Assembly (NCBI GenBank): GCA_963664625.1 | Contig: OY761541.1 | Location: forward strand, 2,571,670-2,635,669 | DNA length: 64,000 nt | Origin: Dehalococcoidia bacterium | GTDB lineage: Bacteria; Chloroflexota; Dehalococcoidia; Lucifugimonadales; UBA3495 | Direction of reading: 5' to 3' | Shown here: positions 2,785-58,728 of the stretch, piece after piece | Layout of the letters: each line of letters starts with the position of its first letter | Numbering within the stretch: the first letter of the stretch is position 1 | Notes under the pieces: model-generated | The model's database searches: none | Told to the model about the DNA's origin: nothing | Seen by the model: only the letters and a program-made list of their open reading frames with translations | Translations under genes and position numbers: made by a program

Positions 2785-5700
2785 TTATATGCGGCGCACC
2801 CCCAGCGTTATCTCCATCCCCTCGACCTTGGACTCCTCTGAAGCCGCGCCTTCCCCGTGCCATCCGGCGGGATCCGGCGGCGGGCCGGCCACCAAGTCTT
2901 CGCTGAGGGTTTCCTGGCGGATGTAGTCGGAGAAGTTGCCCCGCATTACGCTGCTGATTTCCGACGGCGCGTCGTAGTAGGTGACGATCCGGTCGGTCAG
3001 TTCGAACTGGGCGGCGCGGCGCAGGTTCTGTATCCGGTGCACCAATTCCCTGGCCAAGCCCTCCTCCGCCAGTTCCGGGGTGATGGTTGAGTCCACCGCC
3101 ACCATGTAGCCGCCTTCCAGCGCGACGGACCATTTCCGTTCGATCCCTTCTCCGGGGGACCATTCCACCTGTACAACTCCTTCTGTTTTATCTTCTAGTC
3201 TCCCAAGTGCCATCTCATATAGAGACGACGACAACTCATCAATGAAGTCTTCCTTAACGTTTAGTTCCTCTAGAATCTGAGGCCTTATCCAGCCAAAGTA
3301 TTTTCTCTCTTCAGCAGACCTTGGCTTGATGAGTACTCTGGCAAGCGGCTGGCGCACCTTGAGTCCGGCCTTGGAGCGGGCATTGCGGCCCATGCTGGAG
3401 ATACGCATTGCCAGCCGCATCGCTTCCATCAACGGCTCTTCGATGAGGGATTGATCAGGTATTGGGAAGTCGGCCAGGTGCACACTGTCGGGTGCTTCGG
3501 CGTCCACCGAGCATACCAGGTTCTGGTATATCTCCTCGGCGATGAAGGGAGACAAGGGAGCCATCAGCTTGGAAAGAGTCACCAAGCAGGTGCGCAGCGT
3601 GATGTACCCCGACAGCTTGTCTTGGTCGTTCTCGCTCTTCCAGAAGCGGCGGCGGCTGCGCCGGACGTACCAGTTGGACAGTCGGTCGATGAACTCCTGC
3701 ATCCGCCGCCCGGCGTTGGTGGGGTCGTACCCGCCCAGGTACCCGTCAACCTGGCCGACAAGGGCGTTCAATTCCGACAGTATCCACCGGTCCAGTTCGT
3801 GCTCCGGCTTCCACCCGTCCGGCGTCTGATCGGGATGAAACCCGTCGATGGAGGCGTAGTTGGTGAAGAACGAGTAGACGTTCCAGAGGGTCATCAACAC
3901 CCGGCGCAGCGTCTCGTTGACCAGCTTGGCCGAGAAACGGCGCGCCTCGCCCGGATGGGACGCGGTGAACAGGTACCAGCGCAGGGCATCGGCCCCGTGC
4001 TGGTCCAACACCGGAATTGGTTCGACGACGTTGCCGGAGCTTTTGCTCATCTTCCGGCCCCGCTCGTCCAGGATCAGGCCCAAGCAGATTACGTTGCGGT
4101 ATGAAGGCGTGCCTTCCAGCAACGTGGACAGTGCGTGGAGGCTGTAGAACCAGCCCCGCGTCTGGTCGACGGCTTCGCAGATGTAGTCGGCGGGAAACCG
4201 CCCGTCCTGGCTGATGCCAGGATTGTCGAAGGGATAGTGCCACTGGGCAAAGGGCATGGCGCCCGAGTCGAACCAAGCGTCCATCACCTCCGGGATGCGG
4301 CGCATCTGCCCTTCGCATCCCTCTTCCGGGCACTTCAGCAGGACTGTATCGACGTATGGGCGGTGCAGGTCCAGGTCGTTCAACAGGGGTGTGTGCTCCG
4401 GGATGGCATGGGACTTCAGCTCCTCCACGCTGCCTATGCACATGGTATTGTTGCAGTCATCGCACTGCCAGATGGGTATGGGCGTTCCCCAATACCGCTC
4501 CCGCGAAATGGCCCAGTCCACGTTGTTGCGGAGCCACTCCCCGAACCGGCCTTCCTTGATGTAGTCGGGGTACCAGTTGATGGAACTGTTGCCGGAAACG
4601 AGTTGGTCTTTCAGCGCCGTGGTGCGGATGTACCAAGAGTCCTTGGCGTAGTAGAGCAGGGGCGTATTGCACCGCCAGCAGAAGGGGTAAGTGTGGTAGT
4701 AGGTGTCCTTGTTGAACAAGAGTCCACGCTTGTCCAAGTCCTTAATGATTTCTGGATCGGCGTCCTTTACGAACTTCCCCTTCCATTCGTAGTCCCCGGT
4801 AACGTTGCCTTGAAGGTCAACGGGTTGGACAAAAGCCAGGCCTTTCTCCCGGCCCAGACCCAGGTCCTCGTCGCCGAATGCCGGGGCAATGTGGACGATG
4901 CCGGTGCCGTCGTCCATGGACACGAAATCGGCGGCCACTACTTGCGGATTGACCGTAGTATCGGCTGACAACTCGGTGATCGTACCGCCGGGGGTCTGTC
5001 GGTGCATGAACCGCTGGATTTCCACGCTGTATTCCGGAGGTGAGTACAGGGGCCGGTAGCCGATGCCGACAAGGTCGGCACCTTTAACCGTGCCTAACAC
5101 GCCGTAGGAGTCCCGCATGTTGGCGTCCAGCAGTTCGGAAGCCAAAACCAGCCGTTCCGTAGCCCCGTCCCTTTCCAATTCCACTATGGAGTAGTCGGCG
5201 GCCTCGTCCACGGCCAATCCCGTATTGCCGGGAAGGGTCCAGGGAGTAGTCGTCCATGCCAGAAGGTAAGTGGGCACGCCCGAAGTCAGCATAGCCGCTC
5301 CGTCGTCACCCTCTGGTGCGGTCTCTACCAAGAACTTGACGAACACTGACGGGTCGGGGGTGTCCTCACGATAACCCAGCGCCACCTCATGTGAACTGAG
5401 GCTGGTGACGCAACGGGGGCAGTGGGGAGTGCCGCGCATGTCCCGGTAGAGGAGACCCTTGTTCCACAACTCCTTCAGGATCCACCATCCCGACTCTATG
5501 TACTCGTTCTCCAGAGTCACGTAGGGGTCGTCCATATCCACCCAGTAGCCGATGCGGTCGGTCAGCACTTCCCACTCTTTCAGGTAGTGGAACACACTCT
5601 CCCGGCACTGCTGGTTGAACTTCTCTATGCCGTACTCTTCCACTTCGCGCTTGGTGCTCAAACCGAGGGACTTCTCCACCTCCAACTCCACCGGCAGGCC

Positions 5701-6679: not shown

Positions 6680-7492
6680 TCAACCGGCATCCTCCCACAA
6701 ACGCCACAGGTGGCTCAGCGGGCCGTGGCCCTGGCCGATGGGGAAGGAGTGGCGGATGGCTTCGGTCACGTATTCCTTGGCTGCGCCCACGGCATCGAGT
6801 ACAGGCAGACCCTTGGCCAAGCCCGCCGCCACCGCCGAGGCAAAGGTGCAGCCGGTGCCGTGGGTATTCACCGTGTCTATACGGGCGGTGGTGAATTCGT
6901 GAAACTGGTCGCCGTCGAAAAAGATGTCGGTGGCGGGCCCTTCCCGGTGGCCTCCCTTGACCACCACCGCCTTGGCCCCCATCCCCACAATGGCGCGGGC
7001 GGCGTCCCGCACGTCCGCGTCGGAACTAATGTTTATCCCTGTGAGGACTTCAGCCTCCGGTACGTTGGGAGTGACGACCGACGCCAAGGGGAGCAGGCGG
7101 ATGCGCAATGCCCCGACAGCCTCTTCCTGCAAAAGAGAGTCCCCGCTCTTCGCCACCATCACCGGGTCGACGACCAATGCCGGAACGCTCCAATGTTCCA
7201 GGGCATCGGCAACGCATTCTATGATGGCGCTGCTGGACAACATGCCCGTCTTGACCGCGTCGGCCCCTATGTCGGTCAGCACCGCGTCGATCTGTGCCCT
7301 GATGACGCTAGTGGGTATCTCGTGCACCGCCGTTACGCCCACCGTATTCTGGGCTGTGATTGCCGTCAATGTGGACGCGCCGTACACACCCAAGGCGGCG
7401 AAGGTCTTGAGGTCGGCCTGCACCCCCGCGCCGCCGCCTGAGTCTGACCCGGCGATGGTCATGGCTTTGGGTCTGGTCGTGGGAGTCATCAT
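6680..7492 (-). CDS. thiD: Hydroxymethylpyrimidine/phosphomethylpyrimidine kinase
   Basis: MTIAGSDSGGGAGVQADLKTFAALGVYG...TAQNT is a canonical ThiD N-terminus. The start ATG overlaps the stop of the upstream GYD gene (ATGATGA). Confidence 0.9.
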   Translation of the reverse strand: MMTPTTRPKAMTIAGSDSGGGAGVQADLKTFAALGVYGASTLTAITAQNTVGVTAVHEIPTSVIRAQIDAVLTDIGADAVKTGMLSSSAIIECVADALEHWSVPALVVDPVMVAKSGDSLLQEEAVGALRIRLLPLASVVTPNVPEAEVLTGINISSDADVRDAARAIVGMGAKAVVVKGGHREGPATDIFFDGDQFHEFTTARIDTVNTHGTGCTFASAVAAGLAKGLPVLDAVGAAKEYVTEAIRHSFPIGQGHGPLSHLWRLWEDAG

Positions 7493-10061: not shown

Positions 10062-10553
10062 TTACTTTGTCATTAACTCTGGGCACAGAAAAACTGCTTT
10101 AATGCCGTGGCGACGTGACCCTTCACGATGAATCCACCAGTCAGTATCTGAAGCGTTCAGGATATCCGGCTCGTTGCCGCTGGCATGGGCCACCGCAACG
10201 AACTTCCGGTCGCTGCGGTCGAAGGCCATAAGGTCTGGGTCATCAGGAAATTCCTCGAAATCCCGGTCAGAGTGAAGGTTTACTGTTACTTTACGGCAAT
10301 GTTCCGGGTTTGCCTGATTTTCAAAGAGCCACCGGAAAAAGGCATCCCCAATCCCGGGCTGCCCGGACGGGTGAAGGTTGTTACGGTATTCCGTGAGGAT
10401 CAAGCTGCTATCGTTCAACAAGACCCAGCCGTCATTCTGTATACGTTGCAACGTCCGTATGCACTTAAGTATGCAGTCCAGTCCTGCCTGTTGGGTCTTG
10501 CCGTTAGCCACAACAGCAACGTTTGTGTCTATTACTACCTCCAATCCCGTCAT
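10062..10553 (-). CDS. PIN-like nuclease-fold protein (163 aa), partner of the upstream ATPase
   Basis: The ATG overlaps the ATPase TGA (ATGA). VVIDTNV at the N-terminus, then acidic positions TEY, DRSDRKFVAVAHAS and NASDTDW in the order expected for the four PIN acidic residues. Confidence 0.55.
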   Translation of the reverse strand: MTGLEVVIDTNVAVVANGKTQQAGLDCILKCIRTLQRIQNDGWVLLNDSSLILTEYRNNLHPSGQPGIGDAFFRWLFENQANPEHCRKVTVNLHSDRDFEEFPDDPDLMAFDRSDRKFVAVAHASGNEPDILNASDTDWWIHREGSRRHGIKAVFLCPELMTK

Positions 10554-11923
10554 GCCGGCTCGGAATTCTTTTGTCGGTTCAGGGAGGCCTCGCTCATGGC
10601 GGCGATCTCGCCAAATTGGTCTCCAAAGAAATCCCTGGGCCAATTGACAATATTCCCGTATTCGTCGAGTTGAAGGTGACTGAGGCTTGAACTCCCATTC
10701 TCTCCCATAGAGCAGAAATACAGCCCTACATCATCTTGCTCGATACCCTCTTCGGCAATGCGTCGCTGGAGTCTGCGAAGCAGATGTTCGCTGTGACTCT
10801 CGAACAGTATCTGAATTCGATAATTCTTCCAAGCGTCGATGAAGACATCGGCAAGGTCGGCTTGGGCGGAGGGGTGTAAGTGGATGTCCGGTTGTTCTAA
10901 GATCAAAGTAGACATTGGAGGCACATAGAAGCATAAGACAAGAACCGGCAAAACTTGGGAAATTCCAAACCCTACGTCTGCTAGGAGAACCTCAGGGGCA
11001 GTGGGTGACCTCCGCACCGTGGCTTCAAATAAACGGTTGCCAGCGTCCAGTGCCTCGACTCGAAAGTCATGGGCGAGTCCGAGCCGTTTAAGCCAGCTTG
11101 CGATGTATGCGTCAATTCTGGAGAATCGTAGTGCAGAGTCATCCCATATAGCCCGACCATCCTGCTTGGATGCGGCTATAGCGCCGACTACAAATTCTCC
11201 TGTCCGACCCACACCTGAGGGTCGGGTACCGGACCAGCGGTATATGCGCTGTGGCTCGGCACGAAGAGGGCCAAGATAATGCACATTGTGCAAGAGCGAT
11301 TCTAGCCCGTGCTGCAAGCTGGAAAGGAAACCACGGTCTTCAAAGTCCCCCTCTATCCAGCGACTAAAATCGTTAAACTGAAGTGTCGGTGTAGGAATTA
11401 TTTGCCCCGGGCGAGGATTGTGTTTGAACTCCTTGCCATCGACCAATTGGGCGTAACCCCGCCCATTTGGTAGACGTCGCACTCCGAATCGCCGACGATG
11501 GGGAATCCGATAAGACATTTCTTTCAGTACCGGAGGCCCTCTGAATTCGACGACCTCTTTGCCTATTTCAGTATCGAAACCGACGTCGGCATGACTGTCT
11601 ACAGAGCTGTTCCCATACTTTTCTGGAACCACTATTTCTCTTTCGGATTGCCAGTCTAGCGAAAACTTAATGGTCTGATTCGTGTCTTGACAGTGGATGA
11701 CACCCTCGAAGTCGCCTACGGCGACGAGCGTTCGCTCGTCGCCGAAATGGAGCACGACTCCGCGGTCTGAAGAATCAACTGTCTGCTTCATCAGGAGTAG
11801 GGCCTGAAGCAGGCTGGTCTTGCCGGAACTGTTTGTCCCGAATAACCCGGTAATGGGCTTCATCGGGATATCCCCGGTATCCTTCCAGGACTTGAAGTTC
11901 TCCAGCCGCAGCCGCGTAAGCAT
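10550..11923 (-). CDS. ABC/SMC-like AAA ATPase (AAA_15/21 type) with DUF3696-like C-terminus
   Basis: ATG at 11923 is preceded by GAGGAG. RLENFKSW...GLFGTNSSGKTSLLQAL (Walker A), LGPLRAEPQRIY, LILEQPDIHLHP (Walker B/D-loop), ESHSEH (H-loop), NWPRDFF tail. Confidence 0.8.
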   Translation of the reverse strand: MLTRLRLENFKSWKDTGDIPMKPITGLFGTNSSGKTSLLQALLLMKQTVDSSDRGVVLHFGDERTLVAVGDFEGVIHCQDTNQTIKFSLDWQSEREIVVPEKYGNSSVDSHADVGFDTEIGKEVVEFRGPPVLKEMSYRIPHRRRFGVRRLPNGRGYAQLVDGKEFKHNPRPGQIIPTPTLQFNDFSRWIEGDFEDRGFLSSLQHGLESLLHNVHYLGPLRAEPQRIYRWSGTRPSGVGRTGEFVVGAIAASKQDGRAIWDDSALRFSRIDAYIASWLKRLGLAHDFRVEALDAGNRLFEATVRRSPTAPEVLLADVGFGISQVLPVLVLCFYVPPMSTLILEQPDIHLHPSAQADLADVFIDAWKNYRIQILFESHSEHLLRRLQRRIAEEGIEQDDVGLYFCSMGENGSSSLSHLQLDEYGNIVNWPRDFFGDQFGEIAAMSEASLNRQKNSEPA

Positions 11924-11948
11924 CGGGATTCTCCTCATAAGGCCCAGG

Positions 11949-12176
11949 TTACTCGGACTGGTCTGCATCCCATCGGATGCCTGTGCTGAAAATGTCGCCC
12001 TTGATTTCGATCTGGTCCCGCAAGCTGCCGATCAGTTCTGCCCATCGCCCGTCAAATGATGTGACCTTCGCAACAGGCTTTCCATTCCGGGTGATAATCA
12101 GTGCTTCGCTGCCGAGTTCGTCCAGAAGCCTCAGGCACTGTCCTTTGAAACCAGCCACGTCAATGGTTTTCATCAT
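11949..12176 (-). CDS. Phd/YefM-family type II antitoxin-like protein
   Basis: 75 aa. MMKTIDVAGFKGQCLRLLDEL...IITRNGKPVAKVTS...IEIKGDIFSTGIRWDA resembles the Phd subtype usually paired with VapC toxins. Confidence 0.7.
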   Translation of the reverse strand: MMKTIDVAGFKGQCLRLLDELGSEALIITRNGKPVAKVTSFDGRWAELIGSLRDQIEIKGDIFSTGIRWDADQSE

Positions 12177-34457: not shown

Positions 34458-34492
34458 GGGATTCCCGCCTACGCGGGAATGACGGGAAGGAG
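34458..34492 (+). repeat. REP-like hairpin repeat copy
   Basis: GGGATTCCCGCCTACGCGGGAATGACGGGAAGGAGG, in the atpD-atpC spacer. Confidence 0.9.
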
Positions 34493-56065: not shown

Positions 56066-56186
56066 GTCAGGCCAGGTCAGGCGTCACGTTCACCCGATTC
56101 TGGTACAGAATCAATATCGTGTCAAGGTTGGGGCCAGTGACCGTAGTGTTCCGCCTCGCGTGGTCAGTCCAACGATGACGGCACGG

Positions 56187-56216
56187 TGGATTCCCGTGCA
56201 GGCGGGAATGACGCGA
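56187..56216 (+). repeat. REP-like hairpin repeat copy (degenerate)
   Basis: GTGGATTCCCGTGCAGGCGGGAATGACGCG. Confidence 0.75.
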
Positions 56217-56320
56217 TGTGGTTGAGGTTACCGCCAGGATTTGGCAGCCGCTGTGAAATTCCAATGGAGATATTCTACGTAACCGGGTTTGCTTGATCAC
56301 CTGAACCATGCCTTGGCCGA

Positions 56321-56329
56321 TGATATAAT
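56321..56329 (+). promoter_or_regulatory. Candidate extended -10 promoter element (TGATATAAT) for the ATPase-PIN-membrane operon
   Basis: TGATATAAT lies 19 nt upstream of the ATG at 56349, inside the spurious 5' extension of the track ORF. Confidence 0.4.
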
Positions 56330-56348
56330 CGGCACGAGGACAGTCGGC

Positions 56349-57590
56349 ATGATAACGAACATCACACTGGGCAACTTCAAGTGCTTCCGGCACGTGAGCA
56401 TCGATCCGAAGCTGGTTACGGTCCTGATTGGGCCCAACGGCACCGGCAAGTCGGGGGTTCTGCAAGCGTTGATGTTGCTGAAGCAATCGAGGGACGATGT
56501 CAGGTCATTGAAATTGCATGGTGATTTGGTGTGGTTCGCGCCGGAGGCATTCGTGTTTCAAGGCTGGGATAGGGCATCGGACGAAGTCGGGCTGGCTCTG
56601 TCCGGATATTGGCTGGTCGAATCAAGAGCTGCTGAAACTCAGGTTGATTTTACGGTTGAGCTTCGGTATTCAAGAGACGCCCAGTTACAGGGAAGGCGAG
56701 GGAAAACGACACTTAAGGCATTTGGAGAGAATTGGGAGATTCCTGTCAGCCCCACGGACATACAGGATCGCATTGATACTTTCTCTGGTGCGCTCGTTTA
56801 TGTGAGCGGACATGGAATAAACGATTTCAGGGGTAACGGTGTAGGTAGGGTAGTAGCAGAATACCCTGAACTTTGGGAACAAGTATCACGAGCCCCCGGA
56901 TCTGTCGTCGGCAATCTGAAGATGGTCCCGGCAACCAGGGCGTTGACTCGAGGCACCTATCACTTGGGGCCAGAGCCTTTCGTGGACATTTCGGGCGTGG
57001 AAGGTCTAGGCAAACAAGAAGAAAACACAGCCACTACCTTGGCTTATTCGCGGCGCGATGTCGAAAAAGTTTCCCATTTGATGAAACGAGTCACAGGGGT
57101 GGGATTCAGAACGGACACTGTTCCTCCGCAATCGGCAATGCCAGTTTCGGAGTCTCCGGTTGGTGATTTCAGTCTCGTTGCCGAAGGATTCGGGACGAAC
57201 GCTTTGGTGCAACTTCTGTTTGAAGTGGTGAGGGCTGTTCCGGGGGTTACGGTGTTGATCGAGGAGCCGGAAGTCCACCTTCACCCCAGAGCGCAGGCCG
57301 ATTTGGCGTCGGTGCTGGTGGAGGAGGCCAAGGCGGCCGACAAGCAGATAATCATGACCACGCACAGCGAGCATGTAGCGGGGAGACTGCTTACACTGGT
57401 GGCGGAGGGGACACTATCGCCGGACGAGTTCGCCATCTACTCTTTCGAAAAGGATGATGACGGTGTCTGTTCCGCACAGAAAATCGAAGTAACCGAACAT
57501 GGTCAGGTCGTGGGTGGCCTGAGGAGCTTCTTCGAGACCGACCTGGACGAAATGCGGCGGTTTGTGGATGCGCTGCGCGCCAAGGCATGA
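56349..57590 (+). CDS. ABC/SMC-like AAA ATPase with DUF3696-like C-terminus (paralog 3)
   Basis: MITNITLGNFKCF...VLIGPNGTGKSGVLQAL (Walker A), VPATRALTRGTY, VLIEEPEVHLHP, TTHSEH, C-terminal LRSFFETD. Confidence 0.8.
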   Translation: MITNITLGNFKCFRHVSIDPKLVTVLIGPNGTGKSGVLQALMLLKQSRDDVRSLKLHGDLVWFAPEAFVFQGWDRASDEVGLALSGYWLVESRAAETQVDFTVELRYSRDAQLQGRRGKTTLKAFGENWEIPVSPTDIQDRIDTFSGALVYVSGHGINDFRGNGVGRVVAEYPELWEQVSRAPGSVVGNLKMVPATRALTRGTYHLGPEPFVDISGVEGLGKQEENTATTLAYSRRDVEKVSHLMKRVTGVGFRTDTVPPQSAMPVSESPVGDFSLVAEGFGTNALVQLLFEVVRAVPGVTVLIEEPEVHLHPRAQADLASVLVEEAKAADKQIIMTTHSEHVAGRLLTLVAEGTLSPDEFAIYSFEKDDDGVCSAQKIEVTEHGQVVGGLRSFFETDLDEMRRFVDALRAKA

Positions 57591-57994
57591 CGCCACGTTT
57601 CATCTTGGACGAAAACGTTGTAATACTGGCGCAACAGGGGCTTGATGAGAGGGGGAATCTCAATCCCGTCTGCGCCGAACTGATCCAACAGATCATAGAG
57701 ATATGCCACACCATTGTGGTGGATGATGTTTTGTGGGACAAGTTTGATGAGCAACTCAACCGGGCCGGTCACCAACAGCCTCAAGCGGGTTCCGTCCTAT
57801 TCCGTGTCCTTTGCAACGCCCTCGCGACGGCCAATAAGATGGACGGGTTGGGTCACACCGCACCGTCCTTCAATGAAGAAGGTTCGATTCCGCCCGGAAG
57901 CATAGACGACACGTATATCGTCCGACTGGCGGTGGAGTCCGAAGCGGTCCTTGTCACTACTGACGGTCCTCTTCGAGACGACCTGCGGGAATGA
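57587..57994 (+). CDS. PIN-like nuclease-fold protein (135 aa), paralog of 10062-10553
   Basis: The ATG overlaps the ATPase TGA (ATGA). FILDENVV at the N-terminus, SIDDTYIVRLAVESEAVLVTTDGPL at the C-terminus. Motif order is the same as in the first copy. Confidence 0.55.
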   Translation: MTPRFILDENVVILAQQGLDERGNLNPVCAELIQQIIEICHTIVVDDVLWDKFDEQLNRAGHQQPQAGSVLFRVLCNALATANKMDGLGHTAPSFNEEGSIPPGSIDDTYIVRLAVESEAVLVTTDGPLRDDLRE

Positions 57995-58551
57995 CCATCC
58001 AAGTCGCCGGAACTGGTCTGATACGGTACGATATAGACATGTTGAAGCAAGAAGATAAACCGCTTTATTGGGACAACCACGAGGGGTTTCGGCGGCTGCT
58101 GATAATCGGCAGTATCTCGCTGGTTATCGGTGTCTTTTTCGGCGACCAGATTGGGCTGTCTGATGGATTCACGTGGCTTCGAGGATGGTTCCCGATTTTC
58201 ATGTGGGCTTCCGGGCTGGTTACCTTGGCTATATGCTTCCTGGTCCATCCACGGCAGTATTCAATTTACCCGGACTACTTGGCGGTTGAGTGGTGGTATC
58301 CCCGCCGGAAGGTCGTCCCTTTCAATGAAATAACCGAGCTCCAAGCTTGGACCAGCGTGGGCCGGCGGAAAATCATCGTGCTAAGCAAGGGTGAGGACTA
58401 CGATTTCGGCTTCGACGCAATCGCGCCCCGGCGGGTAGAAGTATTTGCCCAACGGCTGGAAGAGTCGTTGAACCGCCACCGTTTCTATGCAGGCCGGGAC
58501 CCCCTCCAGATTCGGCCGGAACGGTCGCGCCGGGACAAGGATAAGGGCTAG
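57991..58551 (+). CDS. Membrane protein: two TM helices plus a C-terminal PH-like (bPH/YdbS-like) domain
   Basis: The ATG overlaps the PIN-like TGA (ATGA). Hydrophobic segments LLIIGSISLVIGVFFG and WFPIFMWASGLVTLAICFLV. Then YSIYPDYLAVEWWYPRRKVVPFNEITELQAW...IIVLSKG, resembling bacterial PH domains (inference). Confidence 0.5.
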   Translation: MTIQVAGTGLIRYDIDMLKQEDKPLYWDNHEGFRRLLIIGSISLVIGVFFGDQIGLSDGFTWLRGWFPIFMWASGLVTLAICFLVHPRQYSIYPDYLAVEWWYPRRKVVPFNEITELQAWTSVGRRKIIVLSKGEDYDFGFDAIAPRRVEVFAQRLEESLNRHRFYAGRDPLQIRPERSRRDKDKG

Positions 58552-58616: not shown

Positions 58617-58643
58617 CGTCATTCCGGCCTTGAGCCGGAATCC
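58617..58643 (-). repeat. REP-like hairpin repeat copy (inverted orientation)
   Basis: CGTCATTCCGGCCTTGAGCCGGAATCC. Confidence 0.8.
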
Positions 58644-58695
58644 AGTGCTCCAAATAAGAGTAACTGACCCGAAGTTAGATACGCTCAAACCCACT

Positions 58696-58728
58696 GGATT
58701 CCCGCTTTCGCAGGAATGACGGGAAATG
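58696..58728 (+). repeat. REP-like hairpin repeat copy
   Basis: GGATTCCCGCTTTCGCAGGAATGACGGGAAATG. Confidence 0.85.

Follow-up and report, generated by a model that had tools for sequence, protein, structure and literature searches.

Do the three consecutive open reading frames (ORFs) at 56.3–58.6 kb of contig OY761541.1, as counted within a 64,000-nucleotide stretch of this Dehalococcoidia bacterium sequence (contig positions 2,571,670–2,635,669; the window), make up a three-gene system? An earlier note on this DNA had taken them for an operon, in which an ATPase gene and a gene for a PIN-like protein are extended by a third, translationally coupled gene for a membrane protein. We think it probable that this locus, here called locus 2, is instead a two-gene defence module of an NsnB/HEC-03-like ATPase and a PIN protein, that its PIN gene has been cut by a deletion of ∼235 bp, and that the third gene, ORF3, is an unrelated neighbour. 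The features on which the argument turns are as follows.

56.3–58.6 kb, plus strand: locus 2 (the islet), three consecutive ORFs
56349–57590, plus strand: ABC-type ATPase (AAA_15/AAA_21, NsnB-like), 413 amino acids, intact (from the ORF, Pfam, PADLOC and orthologues)
57587–57994, plus strand: PIN-like nuclease gene, 135 amino acids, a C-terminally truncated copy of a family of 154–160 amino acids
57987–57992, no strand: deletion junction with GGGAAT microhomology (from DNA alignments and abutting blastn blocks)
58039–58551, plus strand: ORF3, a 170-amino-acid membrane protein with two transmembrane (TM) helices and a bPH_5-like domain (from homologues, an AlphaFold2 (AF2) model and Foldseek)

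The ATPase ORF carries all three motifs ascribed to it, GPNGTGKSG (Walker A), VLIEEPEVHLHP (Walker B-like) and TTHSEH, and matches Pfam AAA_15 (3.7e-27) and AAA_21 (1.3e-20). An alternative start at TTG 56289 would yield 433 amino acids; we prefer ATG 56349 because the orthologues begin MITNITLGNFK. The 135-codon PIN-like ORF follows, its ATG overlapping the ATPase stop codon as ATGA (57587–57590). This arrangement is widely conserved. The PIN-like protein has 313 close homologues, and a genome scan restricted to one genome per species gave 31 loci with the pair, all in Chloroflexota metagenome-assembled genomes (MAGs) and 29 of them labelled Dehalococcoidia. Wherever a contig end does not interrupt the genome locus, the gene next upstream of the PIN gene encodes an orthologous ATPase (72% identity for the orthologues in related loci), and the 4-bp overlap between ATPase stop and PIN start is retained in nearly all loci (ATPase end 5004, PIN start 5001). 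Clustered at 50% identity, the proteins returned by an exhaustive HMMER search with the family profile form 304 clusters, of which 174 reach E<=1e-10 and most have 150–165 amino acids. Nine remote metagenome loci, found with a subset alignment (A9) of the PIN family, also have the ATPase directly upstream; the PIN identities are 24–36%, the ATPase identities 31–41% (several ATPases are cut by a contig end), and the GC contents range from 38% to 57%. Because pairing and overlap recur in ∼30 Dehalococcoidia species and on distant low-GC contigs, we regard the pair as a genuine two-gene module.

No gene besides the ATPase and the PIN gene is conserved around the pair in the related loci. Large upstream ORFs common to some of these loci were considered as system components and rejected, since they encode ABC exporters and an Ldh_2 dehydrogenase; these shared neighbours, like the abhydrolase gene, reflect clade-level synteny.

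The assignment of the small protein to the PIN superfamily comes from its predicted fold and its conserved acidic residues. An AF2 model of P0002, a full-length homologue 90% identical to the window protein, was obtained at a predicted local distance difference test score (pLDDT) of 89, and its top Foldseek neighbours in the PDB, VapC toxins, PAE2754, PAE0151 and HARP RNase P, are all PIN folds (probability 0.99–1.0, TM-scores of 0.5–0.6). Residues D8, E9, D108, T124 and D126 are invariant or nearly so over 47 diverse family members, and the window protein keeps D8, E9, E98, D107/D108, T124 and D126. Fold and residues agree with what defines the superfamily, a Rossmann-like alpha/beta/alpha architecture around a parallel sheet, in which acidic residues are conserved behind strands 1 and 4 and where the helix before strand 4 begins. 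In sequence-based searches, Pfam PIN models gave scattered sub-threshold matches to the family, and a sequence-profile search of the PDB gave only sub-threshold NYN/PRORP matches.

The 135-amino-acid ORF described in the earlier note is present in the sequence, but it is not a complete gene. Homologues have 154–160 amino acids in 28 of 30 loci, and the window copy ends at residue 135, so that it lacks what the P0002 model shows as a helix (138–142), the last strand (146–147) and a final helix (149–154). The C-terminal element Y..VL.P.EAL is conserved over the same 47 diverse members. The closest relatives are a metagenome contig (L001) and OZ241919.1 (L007), and both have, in order, a full 156-amino-acid PIN gene, a spacer of 170–190 nt that contains a hairpin resembling repetitive extragenic palindromes (REP), and ORF3. 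Relative to them the window is without ∼235 bp, a stretch that takes in the final 21 codons of the PIN gene with its stop codon, and the spacer with its REP hairpin. The lost segment is edged in L001 and L007 by GGGAAT/GGGACT on the 5′ side and GGCAAT/GGAAAT on the 3′ side, and the window junction reads GGGAAT, a pattern typical of microhomology-mediated deletion. The deletion both created a premature TGA and made an out-of-frame upstream ATG overlap that stop codon. The PIN nuclease of the window is probably impaired and the system crippled in this genome, to judge from the sequence lost; the truncated allele would then be a natural example of such a system decaying.

Other members of the family show lesions too. 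The PIN gene of L031 (5001–5490) has an internal duplication or frameshift, the ATPases of L020 (3658–5004) and L024 (3798–5004) are split into two ORFs, and the PIN protein P0015 has a C-terminal frameshift and ends at 143 amino acids. Erosion of the ATPase–PIN system appears to be recurrent.

The origin of the second overlap bears directly on ORF3. As had been reported, a 186-amino-acid ORF runs from 57991 to 58551 and begins with an ATGA overlap, but the translational coupling read into it falls away, the overlap being the ∼235-bp deletion junction. Twenty-nine homologues (43–89% identity) were found, nearly all of which start at the equivalent of Met17. In the 16 codons between ATG 57991 and that position, the comparison with L001 and L007 gives 6–7 nonsynonymous against 1–2 synonymous differences, whereas in the body of the gene the ratio is about 1:1 over 164 codons. 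Moreover, the standalone copy L003 is homologous only from 14 nt before Met17 onwards. From the conserved start, the substitutions in the extension and the limit of the L003 homology, we place ORF3 at 58039–58551, starting 44 nt after the PIN stop without any overlap. The 16-codon extension is not conserved as coding sequence and evolves like non-coding DNA. We also considered whether its MTIQ...GL...ML motif might derive by a frameshift from what was left of the PIN tail (SGIQ..YGL..EML), and rejected this, as L001 and L007 hold both, with the spacer between them.

ORF3 itself is a real gene, and its description as a two-TM, PH-like protein was borne out. The AF2 model (pLDDT 76) has two TM helices, also seen by hydropathy, followed by a beta-sandwich of 6–7 strands and a C-terminal helix, and Foldseek matches it to PH domains (GRK2, FACT, Rtt106) with probability 1.0. 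Pfam bPH_5 is matched by 26 of the 29 family members (best 1.2e-4). In its two N-terminal TM helices, PH-like beta-sandwich and C-terminal helix the protein resembles bacterial PH membrane proteins (Pfam bPH_5/bPH_4, YdbS/YdbT-like), although the window copy scores below the Pfam gathering threshold (E 0.16 against bPH_5).

Is ORF3 then a dedicated accessory of the pair, a sensor or membrane effector coupled to it in a three-gene operon? The three ORFs are co-directional, ATG 57991 does overlap the PIN stop codon, and ORF3 follows the pair at three loci, namely the window, L001 and L007; since the deletion, it may well be co-transcribed by read-through. Yet only one of the 31 species-level loci (L007) has ORF3 after the pair, 30 of 31 and all of the remote loci being without it, and the 170–190-nt REP-containing spacer precedes it in both L001 and L007. 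Homologues in L002, L003 and L004 stand alone between DctP and FMN_red genes, and on chromosome OY282565.1 ORF3 (2.88 Mb, L002) and the pair (3.54 Mb, L022) are ∼650 kb apart, L002 and L022 presumably belonging to one assembly. Together with an overlap that arose from truncation of a conserved PIN tail, and an extension that evolves as non-coding DNA, these observations make a three-gene operon very improbable, and ORF3 is better seen as an unrelated neighbour that the deletion moved to a position directly after the truncated PIN gene. The attractive reading of ATPase, PIN and membrane protein as one system is thereby corrected; a small deletion can fake operon coupling.

What kind of two-gene system remains? 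The earlier note had pointed to a second ATPase–PIN pair in the window, which we call locus 1.

10062–10553, minus strand: canonical HEC-03 PIN component, 163 amino acids from Met31 of the listed ORF (PADLOC HEC-03A, 1.9e-36)
10550–11968, minus strand: canonical HEC-03 ATPase with DUF3696 tail, 457 amino acids from Met16 (11923) (PADLOC HEC-03B, 1e-125, full length)

HEC-03 (Hma-embedded candidate 03; Payne et al., bioRxiv 10.1101/2024.01.29.577857) consists of an ABC ATPase and a PIN protein, protects E. coli from phages, requires both genes to do so, and is toxic when induced (bioRxiv 10.1101/2024.01.29.577857). Locus 1 has the same ATGA junction as locus 2, and its PIN protein has 1596 homologues. 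On pairwise alignment the two ATPases are significantly similar: their C-terminal 178 residues are 30% identical (E 1e-23), their first 59 residues 42%. The resemblance claimed for the two PIN-like proteins was upheld at the level of profiles and not at that of single sequences: BLASTP found none (E 0.8), and hhalign between the locus 2 PIN profile and the locus 1 sequence by itself yielded a probability of only 16%, but with family alignments on both sides hhalign reached 94% (E 1.3e-7) over 134 collinear columns, in a register that aligns the D-x-N-V, DD..V..A and T/S-D motifs of both families. By these alignments the two pairs are anciently diverged paralogous systems and not recent duplicates. 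The proposal of a modular functional unit stands, in the form of two diverged paralogous families within one window whose tight, overlapping pair is kept in many genomes. A described system accounts for locus 1 fully (HEC-03, PADLOC 1e-125 and 2e-36), and for locus 2 in architecture only.

Locus 1 is preceded by a gene for a Phd/YefM-like antitoxin of 75 amino acids (11949–12176, minus strand; Pfam PhdYeFM 2.2e-5, below the gathering score). A cognate toxin gene is not obvious between it and the HEC-03 pair. No Phd gene is present at locus 2, as had been noted. A locus 1-type PIN protein (P0404) is also encoded by the L007 genome, on the same contig of 4.6 Mb, and that lineage therefore has both systems.

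The likeness of locus 2 to HEC-03 extends to several traits: a co-directional two-gene unit with the ATPase gene before the PIN gene and a start codon that overlaps the preceding stop, an AAA_15/AAA_21 ABC ATPase of 410–460 amino acids with variable inserts, and a stand-alone PIN-like partner of ∼155–165 amino acids with conserved acidic residues. Profile comparison shows the two PIN families to be homologous, and the ATPases are 30–42% identical in their conserved N- and C-terminal parts. There are also differences. The PADLOC model for the HEC-03 PIN protein (PDLC04147) misses the locus 2 PIN family, with 0 of 47 diverse full-length and 0 of 4 remote members reaching 1e-3; the 135-residue window protein gives a marginal 3.5e-4. 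The genome matches for locus 2 are all Chloroflexota MAGs, and the window copy is truncated. The locus 2 ATPase, finally, is nearer to NsnB than to HEC-03B and has no detectable Pfam DUF3696 tail. On these sequence comparisons, locus 2 would be a sister family to HEC-03, among the defence pairs of ABC ATPase and nuclease.

The window PIN protein also matches, weakly (3.5e-4), the N-terminal ∼120 residues of the 486-amino-acid PADLOC candidate PDC-M11A, for which 2 of the 47 PIN-family members reach 2.7e-5. In that candidate defence system, a relative of the PIN-like domain may therefore form part of a fusion protein.

The affinity of the ATPase needs to be considered separately. It had been called a DUF3696-type ATPase, a label that Pfam does not support, since DUF3696 finds no match in the locus 2 protein (E<=1) and only the locus 1 ATPase matches it (3.6e-10); the C-terminal region of the locus 2 ATPase nevertheless aligns to the DUF3696-bearing tail of its locus 1 counterpart. 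Among PADLOC models it matches NsnB (5.8e-44, residues 1–397), AriA (1.1e-29) and HEC-03B (PDLC04148, 8.3e-29), the last over two partial stretches and outscored by NsnB. The same ranking of NsnB over HEC-03B holds for the ATPases of six relatives, and across the family the scores are 149–186 bits for NsnB over the full length and 99–142 bits for HEC-03B. At the sequence level, the only PDB matches are to the OLD-family nuclease 6p74 and PtuA.

NsnB is a component of Menshen, a system reportedly described by Millman et al. in 2022. NsnA combines ParB-DUF262 with ParBDB, NsnB is an AAA_15 ABC ATPase with a C-terminal DUF3696 helix, and NsnC is an inactive N-terminal PIN-like domain (inPIN) fused to a C-terminal nuclease effector; in AlphaFold3 models an NsnB dimer clamps the PIN-like domain of NsnC with its C-terminal DUF3696 tails, an arrangement shared with PARIS and Septu (Li et al. 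2025, PMC12065111). Locus 2 could be an incomplete or degenerate Menshen, made up of NsnB and an NsnC-like protein after the loss of NsnA and of the effector domain at the C terminus. That its ATPase is NsnB-like by best PADLOC model and full-length alignment, as are the ATPases family-wide, and that its partner shares the PIN-like fold of the N-terminal NsnC domain which docks on NsnB, would be explained in this way. We nevertheless consider such an origin improbable. No NsnA gene occurs around 56–59 kb or as a conserved third gene in related loci, and no DUF262/ParB gene lies beside the pair in the window or in the ∼40 related loci. The partner is a stand-alone single domain of ∼156 amino acids throughout the family, without a C-terminal effector nuclease and without a match to the PADLOC NsnC model, and it keeps the acidic catalytic residues of PIN domains that the inactive, nuclease-fused NsnC domain lacks. 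The Walker B motif also differs, with EEPE at locus 2 against the EN variant described for NsnB. The constant two-gene architecture argues for a stable system and not for a remnant.

We favour, then, the two-gene module of an NsnB/HEC-03-like ATPase and a PIN protein, and its likely working can be set out by analogy. PARIS (the ABC ATPase AriA with the Toprim protein AriB), Septu and Gabija likewise join an AAA_15/21 ABC ATPase to a small nuclease effector that is held inactive until a phage trigger appears, and by analogy the same may apply to locus 2; AriA is the third-best PADLOC match of its ATPase (1e-29). The locus 2 effector differs in being PIN-like, not Toprim or HNH, and there is no fused nuclease domain. 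Most likely, on this analogy, the ATPase acts as a sensor that controls a PIN RNase in abortive-infection defence. We infer interaction, trigger, target and defence phenotype alike from HEC-03, Menshen and PARIS. An ATPase oligomer would hold the PIN nuclease inactive by sequestration or allostery, probably through its C-terminal helical tail; a hypervariable insert would sense a phage-derived trigger; ATP binding or hydrolysis would activate or release the PIN RNase; and the RNase would cut cellular or phage RNA and so abort the infection.

Part of this scheme has a counterpart in the family conservation profile. Residues ∼61–200 of the ATPase are hypervariable, with 13–39% identity compared with 50–86% elsewhere. 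We infer from its position just after the Walker A helix that this region is Insert-1 of ABC ATPases. Payne et al. (bioRxiv 10.1101/2024.01.29.577857) proposed that the two inserts of such ATPases decide which trigger is recognized, and hypervariability is what arms-race selection on a sensor should produce. The insert region is shortened in some genomes.

In three species the ATPases (L022, L027 and L028; ∼3925–5004) have 347–359 amino acids and are without residues ∼54–185, the hypervariable insert, while their PIN partner is kept. They could be a natural insert-less variant or a different sensor solution.

The pair might instead serve as a toxin–antitoxin (TA) or addiction module that stabilizes the islet, with the PIN protein as toxin and the ATPase as a type IV-like or ATP-dependent antitoxin. 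Like VapBC, the pair is a compact bicistronic operon with a tight overlap, and its effector resembles VapC in PIN fold and acidic residues. Pfam annotates AAA_21 as ‘putative AbiEii toxin, type IV TA system’; in L001 the pair lies between VapBC-like modules; decayed copies (the window, L031 and the split ATPases of L020 and L024) are typical of TA loci; and HEC-03 is toxic on induction. Unlike VapBC, however, the upstream gene encodes a 413-amino-acid ABC ATPase and not a small DNA-binding VapB, and no Pfam PIN model matches at threshold. The hypervariable insert and the antiphage activity of HEC-03 fit sensor–effector immunity better, and we judge a primary role in addiction unlikely, noting that a TA function would not preclude abortive-infection defence.

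Some considerations weigh against the two-gene defence module as we have drawn it. The link to HEC-03 depends on one profile–profile comparison and on shared architecture. That the truncated PIN protein is inactive is suggested solely by the conservation of the tail it has lost. An assembly error might in principle account for the deletion; the allele is found on one contig only. Finally, the neighbours of the islet in the window, which include abhydrolase and trpB genes, are not recognizable as a defence island.

The locus 2 type, with its stand-alone and apparently catalytic PIN protein, may be a distinct and uncatalogued antiphage family that would lie in evolution between HEC-03 and the NsnB–NsnC core, for example an ancestral active-PIN state that preceded the inactive-PIN adaptor of Menshen, with the hypervariable insert as the surface for trigger recognition. 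A coherent ATPase–PIN family can in any case be defined, in which the PIN protein is paired with an NsnB-like ATPase at every locus examined and which current defence-finder models miss. Its addition to PADLOC or DefenseFinder would improve the annotation of defence genes in Chloroflexota, and it offers a comparison point for the control of PIN-fold partners by NsnB/HEC-03-type ATPases.

The composition of the islet sets it apart from its surroundings, with a GC content of 54.5% compared with ∼64% in both flanks, or ∼9–10 points lower; a spot count of 30/60 over 60 nt at 57001 was reproduced on recount. Scans for promoters and terminators in the islet gave nothing above shuffled controls. The hairpins said to bound it were confirmed as REP-like, built on CGTCATTCC/GGAATGACG.

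56187–56216, no strand: REP-like hairpin upstream of the pair, GGATTCCCG...CGGGAATGACG (dG −15 kcal/mol, z −2.4)
58617–58641 and 58695–58721, no strand: two REP-like hairpins downstream of ORF3, an inverted pair

The 9-mer of these elements is enriched in the 64-kb window, with six occurrences compared with 0.88 expected. The palindrome family (…GGATTCCCGC…GCGGGAATGACG…) is dispersed intergenically in this genome and its relatives, at 34476, 55212, 56205, 58617, 58713 and 60834 in the window, at ∼5880–5960 in L001 and at ∼5530–5570 in L007. Translation of such elements gives rise to spurious ORFs, for example at 56067–56486 on the minus strand.

The interval between the abhydrolase and ATPase genes is ∼175 bp in the window (56138–56313), and relatives have an extra 2–3.8 kb of DNA here (280–4090 in L001, 666–3726 in L005 and 1566–3727 in L007), which makes this the second indel polymorphism of the islet. 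In L001, small VapBC-like modules lie on both sides of the ATPase–PIN–ORF3 block, at 3286–3965 and 6686–7325, with Pfam PIN matches of 6e-8 and 9e-7 and a short ORF before each. As the window has none, the islet is a hotspot for small mobile toxin modules.

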